From a virus, in the IMG/VR virus record IMGVR_UViG_3300042013_000061, positions 32,001 through 96,000 of that record: 64,000 nt of DNA; one strand, written 5' to 3'. Every line of letters starts with the position of its first letter. Positions within the stretch are counted from its first letter, which is position 1. The translations under genes and the position numbers were made by a program. Positions 10,731-64,000 of this stretch are shown piece by piece. Under the pieces are notes generated by a model. It was not told the origin of the DNA. It searched no databases and saw only the letters and a list, made by a program, of their open reading frames with translations.

Positions 10731-12320
10731 TTAAATTGTCGCTACGGCGGTAGACAGTTGCCCGGTTGCCGCGACGGTTGTGGTGAACAAAATGCGTTTC
10801 GAATAACGTTCCGGCTGAATCATGTAGACCAGCGCTACGTCACCGTTTGCAACTTGTGCAGCCGGGTTTGTGTCCTTGTCGCATTTGACTTCATACGCAT
10901 ACAAACCGCGTGCGTTCAAAATCGGTTTCAGAATTGCGTCTACAACGCCTTCCAATTGTTGCCACAGGTATTCGTCGTTTGGATCGAACAGGCCGACCAG
11001 CACGTCGTATTTCGCAGTGGTTTCAATCGTGTTAATCAGGCGGCGAACTGGAACATCCGACAGAGCCGATTTCTCAGCTTGCAGAGTTTGTGCGCCCCAA
11101 ACGCAGTAACCGTAACCTGCGAATTTCTGAATCATGTTGATCTGGTTTTGATCCAGAATGTTGCGATCATTCAGGGAGTATTTTTGACGCACTCCGCGAA
11201 TTTCTTTAATCACACCACGAACCACACCAGCAGGCGCCCACCACTCGGCCTTCATTGCGTCGGACTGTGCAAATACAGCAGCAACAGCACCGGAACAAGG
11301 CACGTAAATCTCTTGGTTTTCGTCTGTCAATTCCAGAATGTCAGAGCAGTACATCGCACCGAAACTGGTATTCGCATTGAGGACGTTACGACGGTAATCA
11401 ACAGCGCGTGCAACTGTTTGCATATCCGAAGGAATGTCGAGAATTGCAAAACAATCCCGGCGCTCTTCAGCGAGTTGCAGCATGCGTTGTTGCACACCAG
11501 TATCGGTATAACCGGCGTTAATCAAAACGCGAATTTCGTAATCGTCTTCGTTGTCGAACAAATCCCAGCCTTCGATGATATCGCCAGCATTCGACTTGCG
11601 ACCGTTATCACCAAAAGAAAGATCGACCTGCGCCACTGCGTTAATGAGGCGCGCTTTACCTTCCGAATTAATCCACGCTGGATTGGTTTCGTTGACCTTC
11701 GCACGAATGCGAGAATCAGCGGCCTTCAGTTGGTATTCAATGTTCAGTTGTTTATTCTGACCACTGACTTTATCGCGCAATGTGCCGCGATAGGTTTCGA
11801 CCGGGTTGCTGAAATTCGTTTCGAAAACTTGCAAAACAAACAGTTCGTTTTCAACGTCGTTAACGTCTGGATAAACCAGAACGCGAAGGTTGTTGTTCCA
11901 CGAGCCGGGGTTTGCGCCGTACAGGAAAAGGATTTCGTCGGGCAATTGATTGTGATCGGTTTCTGGTGCCAGATAACCGTTGGTTGCCGATTTCGCAGTG
12001 CAGAAACCATCAACTGTACGGAAAGACGCGGAACCATAATTCGCTTCAGTATCAACGCGAACAAACCACAAACGTTGTGCGGTATTCAGGAAACGTTCTG
12101 CGCAGAAATGCGCGTAGGTGAGAGACGCATCACGACGACCGAAAATCGACCGCCATTGTGCAACACCATTCGAGATTTCAGTTGGTACGCCAACCGGGCC
12201 ACGAACTGCATCACCTACCATTGCGCCCGTGCTGGGGTACGTGGACGATGCGGAAAAGGAATTATCCTGTTCACCACCATACACGCCCGCAGACGTATTG
12301 CTGCCATTTTGAAGGGGCAT
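10731..12320 (-). CDS. tail sheath protein 1
   Basis: SAGVY..E.D N-terminus; RGPV, RRDCFAILD, WWAPAG..RG, WGAQT and VRRL motifs. Confidence 0.93.
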   Translation of the reverse strand: MPLQNGSNTSAGVYGGEQDNSFSASSTYPSTGAMVGDAVRGPVGVPTEISNGVAQWRSIFGRRDASLTYAHFCAERFLNTAQRLWFVRVDTEANYGSASFRTVDGFCTAKSATNGYLAPETDHNQLPDEILFLYGANPGSWNNNLRVLVYPDVNDVENELFVLQVFETNFSNPVETYRGTLRDKVSGQNKQLNIEYQLKAADSRIRAKVNETNPAWINSEGKARLINAVAQVDLSFGDNGRKSNAGDIIEGWDLFDNEDDYEIRVLINAGYTDTGVQQRMLQLAEERRDCFAILDIPSDMQTVARAVDYRRNVLNANTSFGAMYCSDILELTDENQEIYVPCSGAVAAVFAQSDAMKAEWWAPAGVVRGVIKEIRGVRQKYSLNDRNILDQNQINMIQKFAGYGYCVWGAQTLQAEKSALSDVPVRRLINTIETTAKYDVLVGLFDPNDEYLWQQLEGVVDAILKPILNARGLYAYEVKCDKDTNPAAQVANGDVALVYMIQPERYSKRILFTTTVAATGQLSTAVATI

Positions 12321-31402: not shown

Positions 31403-33043
31403 TTAAGCCTCGGTAAAGGTCATGGAAGAACCGAAATTGCGAATGTCAGCAGTCAGGGAAGCACGGCTGGCCGGAATCTCAGGGTCAATGACGAAATCAA
31501 TCGCCATATCGTTATTCGCGATTACTTCAGTTGTGTTGTTGCGTTCATCGCAAATGGTTTCCCAATCGTTGATACCGCGACCGCGTTTCACTTTGGCTGC
31601 TTCAGCATCGACGATGCCTTTCAATTGATCCCGTTCGTATTTATCGTTCGGGTTGAAAACAGACGGCAGAAACGCTTTACGAATCAGCGTTTTCACACCG
31701 TTAACCAGACGACGCACGTTCACGTATTGGAAACCAGACTCGAAAGCCTGCAACGTGAGTTGTTCGAAAATAACGAAACCGCGTTTTGGAATGCGGCGGA
31801 TGTAGTTAATCTGCGATTGTTGTAGAGCATTACGCTCTTGCAGATTGTATTTCCGGCTCAGGTTGGTAACTTTCAACTGACCACGAGAAATACCAGCCGG
31901 TGCCCAGTAGTAGGCTTTTACGCGGTCGGTGTACGCATAAGCTGCGGCAACCAAACCAGACGGCGGACACATGATTTTGCGACCGGAAACGTCGTCGGTG
32001 ATTTCCACAAACGGGCCATACAGCGCGCCGTAGGAATTGGAAACGTTCAACACATTGCGACGATAATTCGTTGCTTTGGAAACCTCTTCGAATTCCGTAG
32101 GCAGGTCGATAATCGCCATTGCATCGCCGCGAGTTTCTGCGATGGAAATCATGCGCTGCTGAATATACGGCGAAGTGAAACCACCGTTAATCAGAATTTG
32201 CACTGCGAAATCGTCGGTGTTTTCGATACCTTCCCATGCAGCGATGATATCGGAATCAGAGCAACGGTTGCCGTTTTCGCCGCCGTCCAGAGTTTCGAAC
32301 GTCGAAGTGCGGATATCAATCAGTGGGCAAAGTGCGTTGTTTTTAACGCGAATGAATTTCGAGTTTCCGTTAATACGGGACTCGACAAACATTTGCTGTT
32401 GTTGGCCGTCAAGTTCAGCAGAGCGGCTGCACAGGTACGATTCAACCGGTACGCTGCCATTGCCTTTGTAATCTTTGAAAACTTCGACGTAGAAATGTTT
32501 CGGGTTACTGAATTCCCCGACAGCGGTGCCTTGCTGGTTCGAAGGGCGCACGCGAATAGAAATGCTATCCGACCACGAACCCGGCGAAGTTGCACAGAAA
32601 AACAACAGAACGTTTTCAACGCCCGGAGTGCCGACAGTGAAACCGATTTCGTTGATTGGATTTCCGAGAACACCTTTCGGGGTATTATCACCATCGTCGA
32701 AATTCACCAGTTTCAGAACCGGTTCCATTGCCGCATTATCATCCACGGACAAATAGGCGCCAGCGGTCAATGCAGTTTTAACGTCAACCGCACGCTTGAT
32801 ATACAGGCGCGATTCCGCAGTAAAGTGTTCAGCACAGTGCATGCTGTAACCCAATTTTGCGAAATCTTTAATGCCGAATTTGGTTTTCAAATCTTGCTTG
32901 TCAGTAACAAGCGTCCATTCTTCGGTGCTGCCCATTTGCGATTCAACAACAATCGCACCAATGGAGCTAATCACCGTACCGCCGCGCTGGCTCAGGTCGT
33001 TATCCTGATCGTAAACGCCAGCACTCGTATTAGGAAATGCCAT
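31403..33043 (-). CDS. tail sheath protein 2
   Basis: SAGVY..D.DLS, RGDAMAIIDLP, PPSG, WAPAG..RG, NVRRL, FNPND and CDERNNT motifs. Confidence 0.92.
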   Translation of the reverse strand: MAFPNTSAGVYDQDNDLSQRGGTVISSIGAIVVESQMGSTEEWTLVTDKQDLKTKFGIKDFAKLGYSMHCAEHFTAESRLYIKRAVDVKTALTAGAYLSVDDNAAMEPVLKLVNFDDGDNTPKGVLGNPINEIGFTVGTPGVENVLLFFCATSPGSWSDSISIRVRPSNQQGTAVGEFSNPKHFYVEVFKDYKGNGSVPVESYLCSRSAELDGQQQQMFVESRINGNSKFIRVKNNALCPLIDIRTSTFETLDGGENGNRCSDSDIIAAWEGIENTDDFAVQILINGGFTSPYIQQRMISIAETRGDAMAIIDLPTEFEEVSKATNYRRNVLNVSNSYGALYGPFVEITDDVSGRKIMCPPSGLVAAAYAYTDRVKAYYWAPAGISRGQLKVTNLSRKYNLQERNALQQSQINYIRRIPKRGFVIFEQLTLQAFESGFQYVNVRRLVNGVKTLIRKAFLPSVFNPNDKYERDQLKGIVDAEAAKVKRGRGINDWETICDERNNTTEVIANNDMAIDFVIDPEIPASRASLTADIRNFGSSMTFTEA

Positions 33044-59992: not shown

Positions 59993-60028
59993 AAAAAACC
60001 CGCCGATCCACTAGGGAAGGGCGGGTTT
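59993..60028 (-). terminator. rho-independent terminator (near copy of 45262..45297)
   Basis: AAACCCGCC/GGCGGGTTT stem plus T-run. Confidence 0.8.
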
Positions 60029-60056
60029 CTTTTATTGCAAACCAATCAAACGGCTA

Positions 60057-61427
60057 TTAACCGAAAGCTGGTTTTTTGTTACCGGACTTCTTCGGAACAG
60101 CGCCACCTTTCGGTTTAGCGGCTGCTTTCGGAGCGGCCTTTGGTGCGGCTTTAGCGGCGGCTTTCGGCGCTGCTTTTGCTGCTTTTTTCGGAGCGGCTTT
60201 TGCTGGTGCAGCTTCAGCTTTTGGCTTGGCTGGACGACCACGTTTTTTCGGAGCGACTGCCGGAGCGGCTGCTTCTTTTACTTTGGCTGGGCGACCACGC
60301 TTTTTAGCTGGTGCGGCGGCTGGCGCTGCTTCAGCTTTTGGCTTGGCCGGACGACCGCGTTTCTTTGCCGGTGCTGCTGGTGCTGCTTCGGCTTTTGGTT
60401 TTGCAGGACGACCGCGTTTTTTCGCTGGAGCGGCTGGAGCAGCAGCTTCAGTTTTTACTTTCGCAGGACGACCGCGTTTTTTCGGTGCAGCGGCTGGAGC
60501 GGCGGCAACTTCAGTTTTCACTTTAGCTGGACGGCCACGCTTTTTGGCTGGAGCGGCTGGAGCAGCAGCTTCAGTTTTTGGCTTGGCAGGACGACCGCGT
60601 TTTTTCGCTACTGGAGCCGGTGCAGCATCAGCTTTTGGCTTGGCTGGACGGCCACGCTTTTTGGCTGGTGCAGCTTCAGCAGCCGGAGCGGCAGCAGGTG
60701 CTTTACGCGCTTTTTTCACAGCACCGCCGGTTTTGCCGAAGTGCTTAGTGGAAATAGCTGCGGTTTCTTTTTGTGCAGCAACTTTGCGAGCAGCAACCTT
60801 TTTAGGGTCGATGGTTTGCAGACGCTTGCCTTTCTTGGAGATTGGCTTGGCGCTGAAGTTACCGATGAAATCCTTCAGGCGGAAAACGCCGCGCTTTGCA
60901 GACTGCGCTTTGATTTTGCCGATGGTTTTCTGGTGAGTTTTCACCGCTTTCATACGCTCGCCAGCGAGTTGTTTACGCTCGGAAGCGTAACGCTGTTTCT
61001 CAGCGGCGCGCATTTTCATACGAACGGCAGGAGCGACTTTTGCAGTGCGGATTTTTTGCAGTGCTTTTTTGTGAGCACCGGAAACGGCTTGAGCCTTCGA
61101 TTTCAGTTGACCACGGATGGACTTCTGAGCGGTGACGGCTTGACGTTTCTGTTCCGAAGCGTGCTTACCAGCGTGGCGAAGTTTGCGGTTGGCTTTGTAG
61201 GCACGAACGGCTTTTTTCGCTTCAGCTTCGGTAGCACCGTGACGCATGGCACGCAGAAAAACCGAGTTTTCCAGATGCGCCAGTTTTTCCTGATGCGTCA
61301 TGGTTTTGTAACGGTTTTTTGCAACCTTGTTCAGCTTCGATTTGTTTTTGTTGCGGTATTGTTTAGCCTTTTTGGCAGCAGCGCGTGCCTCGGGGCTTTT
61401 GTCCTTACGGACGACTTTCGTGACCAT
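60057..61427 (-). CDS. histone H1/AlgP-like DNA-binding protein with 8 AT-hooks
   Basis: Extremely Lys/Ala/Pro/Arg-rich; 8 x KKRGRPAK; (P/A)KAA tail. Confidence 0.85.
   Translation of the reverse strand: MVTKVVRKDKSPEARAAAKKAKQYRNKNKSKLNKVAKNRYKTMTHQEKLAHLENSVFLRAMRHGATEAEAKKAVRAYKANRKLRHAGKHASEQKRQAVTAQKSIRGQLKSKAQAVSGAHKKALQKIRTAKVAPAVRMKMRAAEKQRYASERKQLAGERMKAVKTHQKTIGKIKAQSAKRGVFRLKDFIGNFSAKPISKKGKRLQTIDPKKVAARKVAAQKETAAISTKHFGKTGGAVKKARKAPAAAPAAEAAPAKKRGRPAKPKADAAPAPVAKKRGRPAKPKTEAAAPAAPAKKRGRPAKVKTEVAAAPAAAPKKRGRPAKVKTEAAAPAAPAKKRGRPAKPKAEAAPAAPAKKRGRPAKPKAEAAPAAAPAKKRGRPAKVKEAAAPAVAPKKRGRPAKPKAEAAPAKAAPKKAAKAAPKAAAKAAPKAAPKAAAKPKGGAVPKKSGNKKPAFG
60220..60670 (-). repeat. 8 imperfect ~57-63 nt tandem repeats encoding AT-hooks
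   Basis: Repeated AARAARCGYGGYCGYCCNGCNAAR units. Confidence 0.9.
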
Positions 61428-61496
61428 CGGAGCATCCTCGATTATAGGGTTTTGGCAGTTGGCCTACAATCGTAGCGCCACGATGTACCAACTAAT

Positions 61497-61505
61497 AATA
61501 AATTA
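61497..61505 (-). promoter_or_regulatory. putative late promoter TAATTTATT (histone-like gene)
   Basis: Followed by a long hairpin at 61457..61493. Confidence 0.6.
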
Positions 61506-61522
61506 GTATTATCGTGAATTAA

Positions 61523-62572
61523 TTAACTGGCCGAAATCCCCAGCCGGGCACAAGCCTTTTTAACTTCTTTTCGACCGGCTTTAATCAACTCTTTATCAAA
61601 GCCTTCTGCCACCATGAACTCTTTTAAACCAAACATTGGATCAATATCAATGTTTTCCACTTTAATTGAATCATCTTCAGAAACATTCGATTTTTTCGCA
61701 CCAGCCTTATGAATGCCCCCGGTAATGTTCGGGTATTGAATCATTAGGTCTGCTGGAATAGGAACATCTTCAGCCACGTGCAGCTTATAACGAACGTTAT
61801 CCGAGTACGTCAGCTTCTTGTAATCATTCAGATCATTAATCTCTACGTTCTGCAACGTAAAGTTTGGTTTGTTTTCAACGAACTTGTGTTGGAACGCAAC
61901 GCGGTTTCCTTCCATGCTGGCTTTAAAATGAATAAAGCCTTTTGGCAATGCTTCGCCAAAGTTTTTCTGGAATGGATTACCGCAATAAACGGCCCGCTTT
62001 GTTTTCATGAATTGGTATTGGTGAATATGCCCGGAAATAGTGAAATCGTTTTTGTGGGTTTCCAATTCATGTTTGGTTTTTAACGAACGACCGTTATCAC
62101 CAATAGCGCCGCTGTATTCAACGTGCGCAAAGTTCAATGCACCCTGTTTAGTGGACAGGGTTTTCAAGCATGGGTACGGCAGGAAATTCACCGGTACGTT
62201 TTCGATTACAACGCGTTCCGGTTTCAGGACGATTTTCAGACGCTTAAACGCTTTCGACGTTGCCAGCTTGTGCATGAAATTCATCGACGTATTTTCGATA
62301 TCACCGAAATCATGGTTGCCCATGATGTAATACGTGTAAAGGTTTTCATCGTGTCGCAGAAACAAATCGTACAGCTTGCCGTATGTATCCCAATCGAGGT
62401 CTGGTGTATCAGACAAATCGCCCGGAATAAATACGTGTTTAATACCGTTGCTATACGCGTACTGGTAAATCTTTTCCATTTCCGCCAAGATGCGATCATT
62501 TGCATCGGGGAAATGCTTGTTCAATCCGTCAAGGTGAACGTCAGAAAATGCAATGCCTTCAAGATCAGCCAC
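61523..62572 (-). CDS. sbcD: Mre11/SbcD-like nuclease (T4 gp47-like)
   Basis: SDVH, GDLSD, GNHD, SGHIH and G.PFQKNFGE metallophosphoesterase motifs. Confidence 0.9.
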   Translation of the reverse strand: MADLEGIAFSDVHLDGLNKHFPDANDRILAEMEKIYQYAYSNGIKHVFIPGDLSDTPDLDWDTYGKLYDLFLRHDENLYTYYIMGNHDFGDIENTSMNFMHKLATSKAFKRLKIVLKPERVVIENVPVNFLPYPCLKTLSTKQGALNFAHVEYSGAIGDNGRSLKTKHELETHKNDFTISGHIHQYQFMKTKRAVYCGNPFQKNFGEALPKGFIHFKASMEGNRVAFQHKFVENKPNFTLQNVEINDLNDYKKLTYSDNVRYKLHVAEDVPIPADLMIQYPNITGGIHKAGAKKSNVSEDDSIKVENIDIDPMFGLKEFMVAEGFDKELIKAGRKEVKKACARLGISAS

Positions 62573-63008
62573 GTTTTACTTCCACTGTGAATTGAATGTA
62601 TTTCAGGGGGCGCGAAGGTTGGAACGAATACGGCATAACCAACATACCGATCAGACCCCGACCACGCTTTTTCGCCGTGCGTTTGTTACGCAGGAATAAG
62701 TGCGTAATCCGTTCACCGTCAGCCGTGTTCCCGCCGACCAGAACGCCACGGCGATTTCCCCGTTTTTCATCATTTACAGTAAACGATTCGACGATACCTT
62801 CACCCGGCCCGCCGACAGTGAAGTCATTAATGCCACGCCGATCTATTAAATCGTCAAAGAATTTCTTGATAATTGGTTTTGCGTCTGCGGTTTCCATACC
62901 AATTGTGTGTGACAGTTGATCGCTGATATGCTGCACCATTCTGCGCACGTTGATATCGTCGATAGAGCTACGCGCTGGTATGTCGTCGAGGCCAGTGTGG
63001 TCAGTCAT
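62565..63008 (-). CDS. stand-alone tail-sheath C-terminal-domain-like protein
   Basis: INVRRMV..I, FFDDLIDRRGINDFTV and FQPSRPLKYIQFTV motifs. Confidence 0.65.
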   Translation of the reverse strand: MTDHTGLDDIPARSSIDDINVRRMVQHISDQLSHTIGMETADAKPIIKKFFDDLIDRRGINDFTVGGPGEGIVESFTVNDEKRGNRRGVLVGGNTADGERITHLFLRNKRTAKKRGRGLIGMLVMPYSFQPSRPLKYIQFTVEVKRG

Positions 63009-63282
63009 TTTTATATTCTCGTGTGCGCAGGCAGGAACCGAAATACAGGATGTTTTTATCGAACAGGTTATTCACGAATGCCAGCCGGTCTTCGTCAAGA
63101 TCGAATCGCGCTGCAATTTCTGAGAGCTTATCGTTTGTCTTGATGTGGTAGATTCCGAAGTTTTCGACTAAGTGGCGTTCGTACTTGATTTCCGAGGCTG
63201 CGCGTTCCGGGTCACTCCACTGGATACGCTTCTCGAAAATTGCACGATCTTTTTCGTGTACATCGAATTCGTCGGCTGGCAT
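63001..63282 (-). CDS. LysM domain protein
   Basis: YHIKTNDKLSEIAARF......LAFVNNL....LYFGSCL. Confidence 0.7.
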   Translation of the reverse strand: MPADEFDVHEKDRAIFEKRIQWSDPERAASEIKYERHLVENFGIYHIKTNDKLSEIAARFDLDEDRLAFVNNLFDKNILYFGSCLRTREYKND

Positions 63283-63287
63283 TTAAA

Positions 63288-63626
63288 TCACCGTAGTTTG
63301 ATTACTTGGCCCGGAAAGATCAGATGCGGATTTTCCAGATTGTTCAACTGTGCGAGAGTGCGCCACGAATGGCCGGTGCCTTCACCAATGTGCGAAAGCG
63401 TATCGCCTTCTTGCACAATGTACATGCCGTACTCTTTCGACACTTGATAACGCAGTTTTTTCTTCAGCGCTTTCAGTTCGTCGCCGGTGATTTCGTGGAT
63501 TTCCAAACCATGCACGGTCTGGCGTGCGACAGAATCTTTAATCGGAATGTTAGACGCGCTCACTGTGAGGTTGCCGTCAGTCTGAACATGCACATTGCCA
63601 GCGGAAATATCTACTTTGGTATTCAT
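63288..63626 (-). CDS. LysM domain protein
   Basis: YIVQEGDTLSHI.......WRTLAQLNNLENPHLIFPGQVIKL. Confidence 0.88.
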   Translation of the reverse strand: MNTKVDISAGNVHVQTDGNLTVSASNIPIKDSVARQTVHGLEIHEITGDELKALKKKLRYQVSKEYGMYIVQEGDTLSHIGEGTGHSWRTLAQLNNLENPHLIFPGQVIKLR

Positions 63627-63988
63627 GAGATTGGCGGCGCCTCGTCGATTTTCAGTTCTTCGGGAGTTTTAAGATTGCGTGCTGCAAACATGGATGCGCG
63701 CAGACGATTCAAACCTTCGACCGTCAATTGATCTTGCGCGTAATTCTCTTCCGCGTGGAACGGATGATCGACGTGGCCGATGGTGCCAACATTCGGAAAT
63801 TTCTTACCGAATTTTTGCAGCTTGGCTTCTTCGTCGAGGTTACGCACATGCTGATTGAACTGGCGCAGCATCTGATCGTAAGCGGCGCGCTGGTAAACAT
63901 ACGCATTTTGAAACGCAAAGTTTCCGATGTTTGCTTGCTGAATGCAGTAAGCCAGAAACTTTACGGGAGGGCGAATTGGAATTGCCAT
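63623..63988 (-). CDS. hypothetical protein containing an EF-Tu-like NVGTIGHVDH motif
   Basis: 121 aa; AGGA RBS; ATGA overlap with the LysM gene. Confidence 0.7.
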   Translation of the reverse strand: MAIPIRPPVKFLAYCIQQANIGNFAFQNAYVYQRAAYDQMLRQFNQHVRNLDEEAKLQKFGKKFPNVGTIGHVDHPFHAEENYAQDQLTVEGLNRLRASMFAARNLKTPEELKIDEAPPIS

Positions 63989-64000
63989 GACGGTTCCTTG

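Follow-up and report, generated by a model that had tools for sequence, protein, structure and literature searches.

A phage protein with an EF-Tu P-loop decapeptide: a probable peptide mimic on a non-GTPase scaffold

Mimicry of host molecules is a known strategy of phages and includes DNA mimics, tRNA mimics and nucleotide sponges. On the host side, elongation factor Tu (EF-Tu) is acted on by several systems; Lit cuts it at G59-I60 and Doc modifies it at T382. The type IV Thoeris caspase is described as arginine-specific and as cutting EF-Tu after R45 and R59 (10.1101/2024.10.24.620036), Avs7 as binding EF-Tu domains II-III (PMC13581612), and TreTu, a Salmonella Rhs toxin, as ADP-ribosylating EF-Tu at Asp21, a residue that points outward, belongs to the elongation-factor signature and sits in a sarcin-ricin-loop pocket on the ribosome (PMC9825190). 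Here we describe a 121-amino-acid (aa) phage protein that carries an exact copy of the ten EF-Tu residues around Asp21, NVGTIGHVDH, on a scaffold that is not a GTPase. Its gene lies in a 64,000-nucleotide (nt) stretch, hereafter the window, which comprises bases 32001-96000 of the 139,569-bp IMG/VR virus record IMGVR_UViG_3300042013_000061 (~47% complete; GC 48.6%). Our preferred reading, stated in general terms and with no named partner, is that the protein is probably a selected mimic of the EF-Tu peptide.

A preliminary description, made from the letters alone, had reported an exact EF-Tu decapeptide in a small non-GTPase open reading frame (ORF). Reading of the sequence bears this out at the same coordinates: the peptide forms residues 66-75 of the 121-aa ORF (minus strand, window 63764-63793), in the context ...EEAKLQKFGKKFP-NVGTIGHVDH-PFHAEEN.... 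The features concerned are:

63623..63988, minus strand: 121-aa accessory gene, carrier of the EF-Tu peptide; an ORF with an ATG start and with no Pfam, PHROG or PADLOC family.
63764..63793, minus strand: decapeptide NVGTIGHVDH, equal to EF-Tu N13-H22, which comprises strand beta-1 together with the N-terminal half of the G1/P-loop (from the sequence and a PDB profile search).
63761..63796, minus strand: conserved 12-mer P-NVGTIGHVDH-P, residues 65-76; one of its 12 columns varies (V to I).
63995..63999, minus strand: Shine-Dalgarno-like AAGGA, 6 nt before the ATG; the reverse complement of 63989-64000 reads CAAGGAACCGTC and is followed by the ATG.

The stop of the gene shares 4 nt with the start of the next one (63288..63626, a 112-aa LysM protein), and the motif codons follow the ordinary usage of the window phage. 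The numbering T16IGHVDHGKTTL27 of Jurenas et al. (PMC9825190) places the copy at EF-Tu N13-H22 with Asp21 included, and a PDB profile search aligned the decapeptide of the 121-aa protein to EF-Tu chains 5i4r_C and 2hcj_A. Directly after the decapeptide stands PFH instead of GKT (GHVDHPFH), leaving the Walker A pattern GxxxxGK[ST] incomplete, and the Lys and Thr of GKT are missing in all six orthologues. As the preliminary description had also stated, the rest of the G domain is absent. The protein matched no Pfam family at E<=0.1 and no PHROG, PADLOC found 0 families among nine proteins including this one, and there was no profile match to the EF-Tu G domain (G2-G5) or to domains II and III. 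A search of the full 139,569-bp record for PF00009 returned nothing at E<=10; the same family was detected in 14 of 14 control genomes. The 121-aa protein fails every defining test of a GTPase. We rejected a split GTPase completed by another phage gene, given no PF00009 match in a record that is only 47% complete, and an intein or homing remnant, as nothing intein-like follows the motif by eye. A further resemblance to EF-Tu that had been proposed, the upstream KxxKF, turned out to be weak; it needs a two-residue gap and yields three identities and one K/R pair over seven positions.

The same peptide recurs on other phage proteins. Back-translated, the decapeptide identified 49 loci in the viral contigs of IMG/VR (viral_contigs), comprising 27 EF-Tu genes, in which GKTTLT... 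and the remainder of EF-Tu follow (a contig end or a frameshift truncates some of them), and 22 ORFs without a G domain. Shuffled and reversed decapeptide patterns of equal degeneracy identified 0 and 0 loci. These counts sustain the earlier judgment that a 10/10 match by chance is very unlikely. An origin of the ten residues independent of EF-Tu, by chance or convergence, would gain some room from the many windows and memorable motifs that were scanned, among which a single 10/10 match is not impossible a priori. Nonetheless, with both controls empty, 22 of the 49 loci outside EF-Tu genes and an EF-Tu-like, decayed GK[ST]T and helix alpha-1 pattern kept after the motif by several other carriers (by eye, and also outside the one EF-Tu-like cluster described below), we consider this explanation extremely improbable and the chance reading close to refuted.

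With the motif masked, BLASTP grouped the 22 non-GTPase ORFs and the window protein into 10 clusters, nine of which, including the window family, have no detectable likeness to EF-Tu or to one another. Recurrence in unrelated scaffolds, which had been proposed as a test of selection, is therefore what was found. The 121-aa protein belongs to this informal group of carriers, defined by an exact or near-exact NVGTIGHVDH on a non-GTPase phage ORF, and the group spans Mu-like, lambdoid and several jumbo phage lineages. Another of its clusters corresponds to a 109-aa gene of Erwinia jumbo phages and SPN3US-like relatives (48 records). Two or three singletons (L025, L043 and perhaps L031), being short or overlapped by a longer ORF on the opposite strand, might not be true genes. 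Both between and within clusters, the motif is encoded with different synonymous codons, indicating that what is shared is the peptide. Integration homology with tuf (attP) was rejected, as synonymous sites vary freely between copies and the 30-mer encoding the motif occurs in no reference genome; the jumbo-phage carriers are, moreover, presumably virulent.

The remaining cluster (nine loci, including L004, L016 and L047) still resembles the EF-Tu N-terminal arm and helix alpha-1. On two prophage-like contigs (L016:3050-3589, minus strand; L045:3334-3873, plus strand), an EF-Tu N-terminus consisting of arm, strand, decayed P-loop and helix forms an in-frame fusion with a YbcO/DUF1364 nuclease domain (Pfam YbcO, 3e-44). 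At L004, L006 and L047 a mini EF-Tu ORF lies directly upstream of ORFs of ~99, 121 and 243 aa, sizes that resemble a YbcO-RusA-Q order.

Carriers such as these, which clearly derive from the 5' end of tuf, together with the great abundance and conservation of tuf itself, lend some weight to a neutral relic: a fragment of host tuf captured by illegitimate recombination that persists, or serves as an ordinary strand, with no role related to EF-Tu. We compared the decapeptide to an equally invariant EF-Tu decamer from G3, DCPGHADY[VI]K, which occurred at 65 loci, all of them (65/65) in an EF-Tu context. Because the G3 decamer is confined to EF-Tu genes, random tuf debris is no explanation and the pattern is specific to residues 13-22, the same ten residues being common to ten clusters. 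At the window locus, the flanks lack any tuf likeness and the 30-mer that encodes the decapeptide was found in 0 of 185,579 species genomes. The sequence coding for the decapeptide is no recent insertion from host tuf.

The orthologues of the 121-aa protein form a small family. A word-index protein search of a 5.8-billion-cluster collection returned only two 90% clusters (P0001 and P0002), giving six full-length orthologues with cluster members included (78-95% identity). A hidden Markov model (HMM) search of 1.84 billion representatives gave five matches, of which P0001 and the 67-aa P0004 are credible; P0003, P0005 and P0006 were rejected as repeat or coiled-coil proteins. P0004, encoded on a 10.5-kb contig, is 40% identical over residues 5-67 and stops where the motif would start, and may be a motif-less form or a broken gene. 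A scan for related loci found one in viral_contigs and confirmed 0 out of 122 candidates in metagenome_contigs. Searches with the 121-aa protein gave only noise by tblastn against 50,697 phage records (E>=2) and no usable match in the ESM Atlas, and megablast of window 60000-64000 gave no match. P0001, the orthologue on a 300-kb contig, is named 'glucose-6-phosphate isomerase' by JGI; no search supports that name and we discarded it.

Compared with its orthologue at L051, the gene has a ratio of nonsynonymous to synonymous divergence (dN/dS) of 0.087 at a dS of 0.72; it is real and under purifying selection. The decapeptide is kept in five of five other full-length orthologues, in P0002 with a V-to-I exchange. 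Among the six orthologues, 1 of 12 columns varies in P-NVGTIGHVDH-P compared to 17 of 26 in the linker flanks (Fisher p=0.0014), which are the most variable part of the protein (9/13 columns at residues 52-64 and 8/13 at residues 77-89). The six sequences are closely related, so variable columns are not independent events, and the DNA-level comparison is between two copies (window and L051). A recent neutral insertion, one of the outcomes that the preliminary description had named as fatal to its proposal, is not what the data show: the motif is kept in orthologues and its DNA is identical to no reference genome. Retention of the motif at a dS of 0.72 likewise speaks against the neutral relic. 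The low synonymous divergence of the motif codons in the two DNA copies, detailed below, could reflect recency and is a point in favor of the relic, which we nevertheless judge very unlikely on the evidence as a whole.

Taken together, the sequence comparisons support a decapeptide that is derived from EF-Tu or convergent on it, kept by selection and portable across unrelated scaffolds, and which very probably has a job. Under the preferred reading as a selected mimic, a small accessory protein, helical for the most part and encoded by a Lu11-like jumbo phage, would show EF-Tu residues 13-22 in a flexible linker between long helices. As a short linear mimic, the peptide would occupy a factor, either protein or rRNA, that normally reads the EF-Tu G1 loop, and its occupation would benefit the phage through anti-defence or host take-over. 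The preliminary description had gone further and proposed a mimic derived from tuf that acts as a decoy or binds EF-Tu partners. Derivation from EF-Tu (or convergence), selection and recurrence stand; the decoy or partner-binding role does not stand to the same extent. Known toxin sites lie mostly outside the copy.

Two more specific versions of the mimic can be formulated. In the version that we favor, the protein may serve as a decoy or pseudo-substrate and engage an enzyme or sensor whose target is the exposed P-loop region around Asp21; TreTu offers a precedent by analogy, and we hold this version as tentative. More speculative is a mobile anti-defence module, placed on unrelated scaffolds, that would jam a widespread factor reading the P-loop/Asp21 face of elongation GTPases. 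The scaffold here would perhaps be an oligomeric sponge like Acb2 or Vs.4 that displays several copies of the peptide, and the factor might be a defence-associated ADP-ribosyltransferase or sensor similar to TreTu; alternatively, the peptide might shield the ribosomal sarcin-ricin loop. Because TreTu alone among the compared systems acts on the copied residues, a P-loop-directed enzyme or sensor, or the ribosome, are the most concrete candidates. We rejected the type IV Thoeris caspase and Lit as targets of a decoy, since their cut sites lie outside the copy and the caspase is specific for arginine, which the motif lacks; a blocker of Avs7 was rejected because Avs7 binds EF-Tu domains II-III. 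A paper on EF-Tu methylation gave no link to residues 13-22.

Several observations weigh against a selected mimic. Residues 13-17 of native EF-Tu form a strand that is buried, and a mimic of the folded surface should therefore not need them; that they are retained is easier to reconcile with a reader of extended peptides than with surface mimicry. The cut sites of the Thoeris caspase and Lit fall outside EF-Tu 13-22, and none of type IV Thoeris caspase, Lit, Doc and Avs7 touches these residues. We know of no defence system that acts like TreTu. TreTu needs folded, GTP-bound EF-Tu and docks on helix D (PMC9825190), so an isolated peptide may not be recognized. Conservation of the motif, significant relative to the linker flanks, is not significant relative to the whole remaining protein of the six close orthologues (1/12 versus 32/109 variable columns, p=0.18). 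The N-terminal module, where variation is confined to 8 of 51 columns over residues 1-51, is likewise well preserved and accounts for this. In addition, the 12 motif codons (63761-63796) show one synonymous difference over nine synonymous sites, compared to a gene-wide dS of 0.72 and a dS of 1.59 for residues 1-51 between the window and L051. The deficit is marginal (~p=0.03 by a rough binomial estimate) and could reflect nucleotide-level constraint in this lineage or recent exchange. Finally, the neighbors of the nine other carrier families had no Pfam family in common among the 98 ORFs scanned (best, SLT 2 and GNAT 2). This tally covered 98 of 180 ORFs; it omitted every neighbor of the EF-Tu-like cluster (L004, L006, L016, L017, L033 and L047) and of L041, as well as opposite-strand ORFs overlapping the motif ORF and, at the remaining loci, part of the ORFs that are distal or on the other strand.

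The scaffold around the peptide has three parts:

63800..63988, minus strand: N-terminal helical module, residues 1-63, with helices at 9-21 and 26-63 (AlphaFold2, low confidence; P0004 covers this module alone).
63722..63835, minus strand: variable, low-confidence linker with the motif, residues 52-89 (predicted local distance difference test (pLDDT) <50 at 57-88; flank variability).
63656..63745, minus strand: C-terminal helix region, residues 82-111, similar to Vs.4/Acb2 (BLASTP, hhalign and HMM shuffles).

The AlphaFold2 model, built from a three-sequence alignment, has a mean pLDDT of 49.3 and predicted helices at residues 9-21, 26-63 and 90-104. The motif falls in its lowest-confidence coil (57-88), as expected for a displayed linear motif. 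Foldseek found no PDB structure at E<=0.001 with this model, and in a profile search of 177,635 PDB sequences T4 Vs.4 (7UQ2) appeared at an E of 0.94. Residues 82-111 are identical to Vs.4 55-86 at 15 of 32 positions (pairwise BLASTP, E 6e-06 for a single comparison), and the match coincides with the invariant ASMWACR..PEE block of the Vs.4 family. In hhalign, the 121-aa family aligned to Vs.4 with a probability of 72% and an E of 3.3e-05, leaving the N arm unaligned. Four of six orthologues outscored all 20,000 shuffles against the Vs.4 HMM; the score of the window protein, which has F for W, was reached by 25 of 20,000. An M-x-A-x-x-R-x-[IV]-x-x-P-[ED] pattern is also present in PaMx33 Acb2 (by alignment). 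PF24729 (cut-off 27 bits) matched none of the window protein, P0002, P0004, P0009 and P0010 at E<=10, compared to 71.4 bits for T4 Vs.4, and six-frame searches of the record found neither PF24729 nor PF13876. On this sequence evidence, we treat kinship of the C-terminal helix to Acb2/Vs.4 as a lead on which our opinion is evenly balanced; the scaffold as a whole may be related to these sponge proteins. Should this kinship hold, the EF-Tu peptide would sit in the hairpin loop, enlarged here and hypervariable among the relatives of Vs.4.

The same similarity invites a different function, in which the protein is an Acb2/Vs.4-like oligomeric sponge whose half P-loop, together with the His-rich flank (GHVDHP[F/H]H), would bind phosphate, a nucleotide or a metal and thereby sequester a nucleotide immune signal or alarmone. 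Beyond the C-terminal helix, the PaMx33 pattern and the placement of the motif in a hypervariable loop, this explanation could draw on the predicted short N helix and two long helices, an architecture known from Acb2 (PMC10419184), on the backbone NH of D21, which binds the beta-phosphate in EF-Tu (PMC9825190), and on an F77-to-H exchange in orthologues that gives HVDHPHH. Yet PF24729 and PF13876 gave no match at E<=10 and the PDB-wide E was ~1, the N-terminal arm, which helps to form the ligand pocket in Acb2 (PMC10419184), does not align, the Lys and Thr of GKT are missing, and the other carrier families have no Acb2 likeness. We consider this sponge unlikely.

In HRDY3 and Lu11, the closest isolates of the window phage, ORFs of 66-67 aa (L099:1477-1677, minus strand, and L100:1381-1584, plus strand) match the Acb2/Tad1 hairpin with scores below the cut-off (E 6.3e-05 and 1.7e-04) and lie just after a conserved 447-449-aa gene. 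They have no BLAST likeness to the 121-aa family.

The window phage is a Lu11/HRDY3-like jumbo myovirus. Among isolates, those nearest to it are two phages of Pseudomonas, HRDY3, at 71.5% identity across a 774-aa tail protein, and Lu11, at 65.3%. The window also encodes a major head protein, two sheath paralogues, a DNA polymerase, a ligase and a connector. The 121-aa gene sits in a block of small genes that is flanked by sbcD (349 aa) and an sbcC-like gene (767 aa) and whose content differs among the window phage, Lu11 and HRDY3. By tblastn, neither Lu11 nor HRDY3 has a counterpart, and the 300-kb IMG/VR relative L051 has the same gene order and a copy that is 90% identical. The gene is an accessory gene in a variable island. 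The only sequencing run tagged as RNA-Seq carries the mark 'probably DNA', and its contigs span the stretch in part.

Other genes in and near this island are also unusual. In Lu11 and HRDY3, the 'endolysin' gene (~210 aa) joins an N-terminal domain and a C-terminal LysM in one ORF, whereas the window phage has the halves split into 110 aa (G000 96953-97285 = L054:3953-4285, minus strand) and 112 aa (63288-63626, minus strand), with three genes between them (168 aa, 160 aa and the 121-aa gene). The N half has a weak match to peptidyl-tRNA hydrolase PTH2 (E 0.0011, 19.6 bits, cut-off 23) and to no lysozyme family. A 147-aa ORF at 62565-63282 (minus strand) has faint likeness to the tail-sheath C terminus (Pfam E 0.047; PHROG tail sheath E 0.0021) and is followed by a second LysM mini-protein (93 aa), both outside the tail module. 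At 60057-61427 (minus strand), a 456-aa Lys/Ala/Pro-rich protein with approximately eight tandem KKRGRPAKPK units (Pfam AT_hook, E 2.8e-06) is a candidate phage AT-hook DNA-binding protein. The two tail-sheath paralogues, at 10731-12320 and 31403-33043 (both minus strand; 529 and 546 aa), lie 19 kb apart and each match phrog_23 with an E of ~1e-69.

We found no paper on EF-Tu peptides in phages; the papers listed for NVGTIGHVDH concern plant immunity, immunopeptidomics and general GTPase biology. Mimicry, by ten residues, of the bacterial protein that is both the most abundant and the most conserved does not appear in the papers searched. The present analysis contributes the controls with the G3 decamer and shuffled patterns, the absence of the 30-mer from reference genomes, the placement between sbcC and sbcD, the contrast between flanks and motif, and the Vs.4/Acb2 lead. 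Any partner of the peptide would need to be no less universal than EF-Tu, and identifying it might reveal a new pathway of defence or take-over centred on EF-Tu. The decapeptide is also an easy sequence handle for accessory and anti-defence genes in uncultured phages. A graft onto an Acb2/Vs.4-like scaffold, if real, would tie the peptide directly to known counter-defence proteins, and a mobile module, if true, would establish a new class of counter-defence, in which a short linear peptide imitates a universal host protein, and would suggest that EF-Tu-directed immunity of a new class exists.

Compared to bacterial EF-Tu (tuf, PF00009), the 121-aa protein has ten consecutive identical residues, including the exposed Asp21, but lacks GKT, G2-G5 and domains II/III and carries the motif at residue 66 of a helical protein with a Pro on both sides. 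Among EF-Tu-directed systems, TreTu is the only enzyme we found with its target residue inside the copied decapeptide and offers a precedent for readers of the P-loop, although it is an interbacterial toxin rather than a phage defence. Vs.4 and Acb2 (PF24729, Acb2_Tad1_hairpin; PDB 7UQ2 and 8H2J), which are sponges for cyclic oligonucleotides, are likewise small phage proteins with a short N helix and two long helices; the C-terminal arm ...DQLT......ASMWA.R....PEE may be common to Vs.4 and the 121-aa protein, whereas the hairpin loop of the latter would be ~26 residues longer, holding the EF-Tu peptide, and its N arm is not alignable. Also comparable are the carriers from Erwinia phages (ChrisDB, Huxley and Machina, some annotated as 'putative elongation factor Tu'), which likewise have the exact decapeptide on a small non-GTPase ORF in jumbo phages of Gammaproteobacteria. 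Outside the motif, these and their SPN3US-like relatives have no sequence likeness to the window protein; by eye, HV still precedes the motif and a decayed helix alpha-1 follows it in those carriers, whereas the window protein has kept only the decapeptide.

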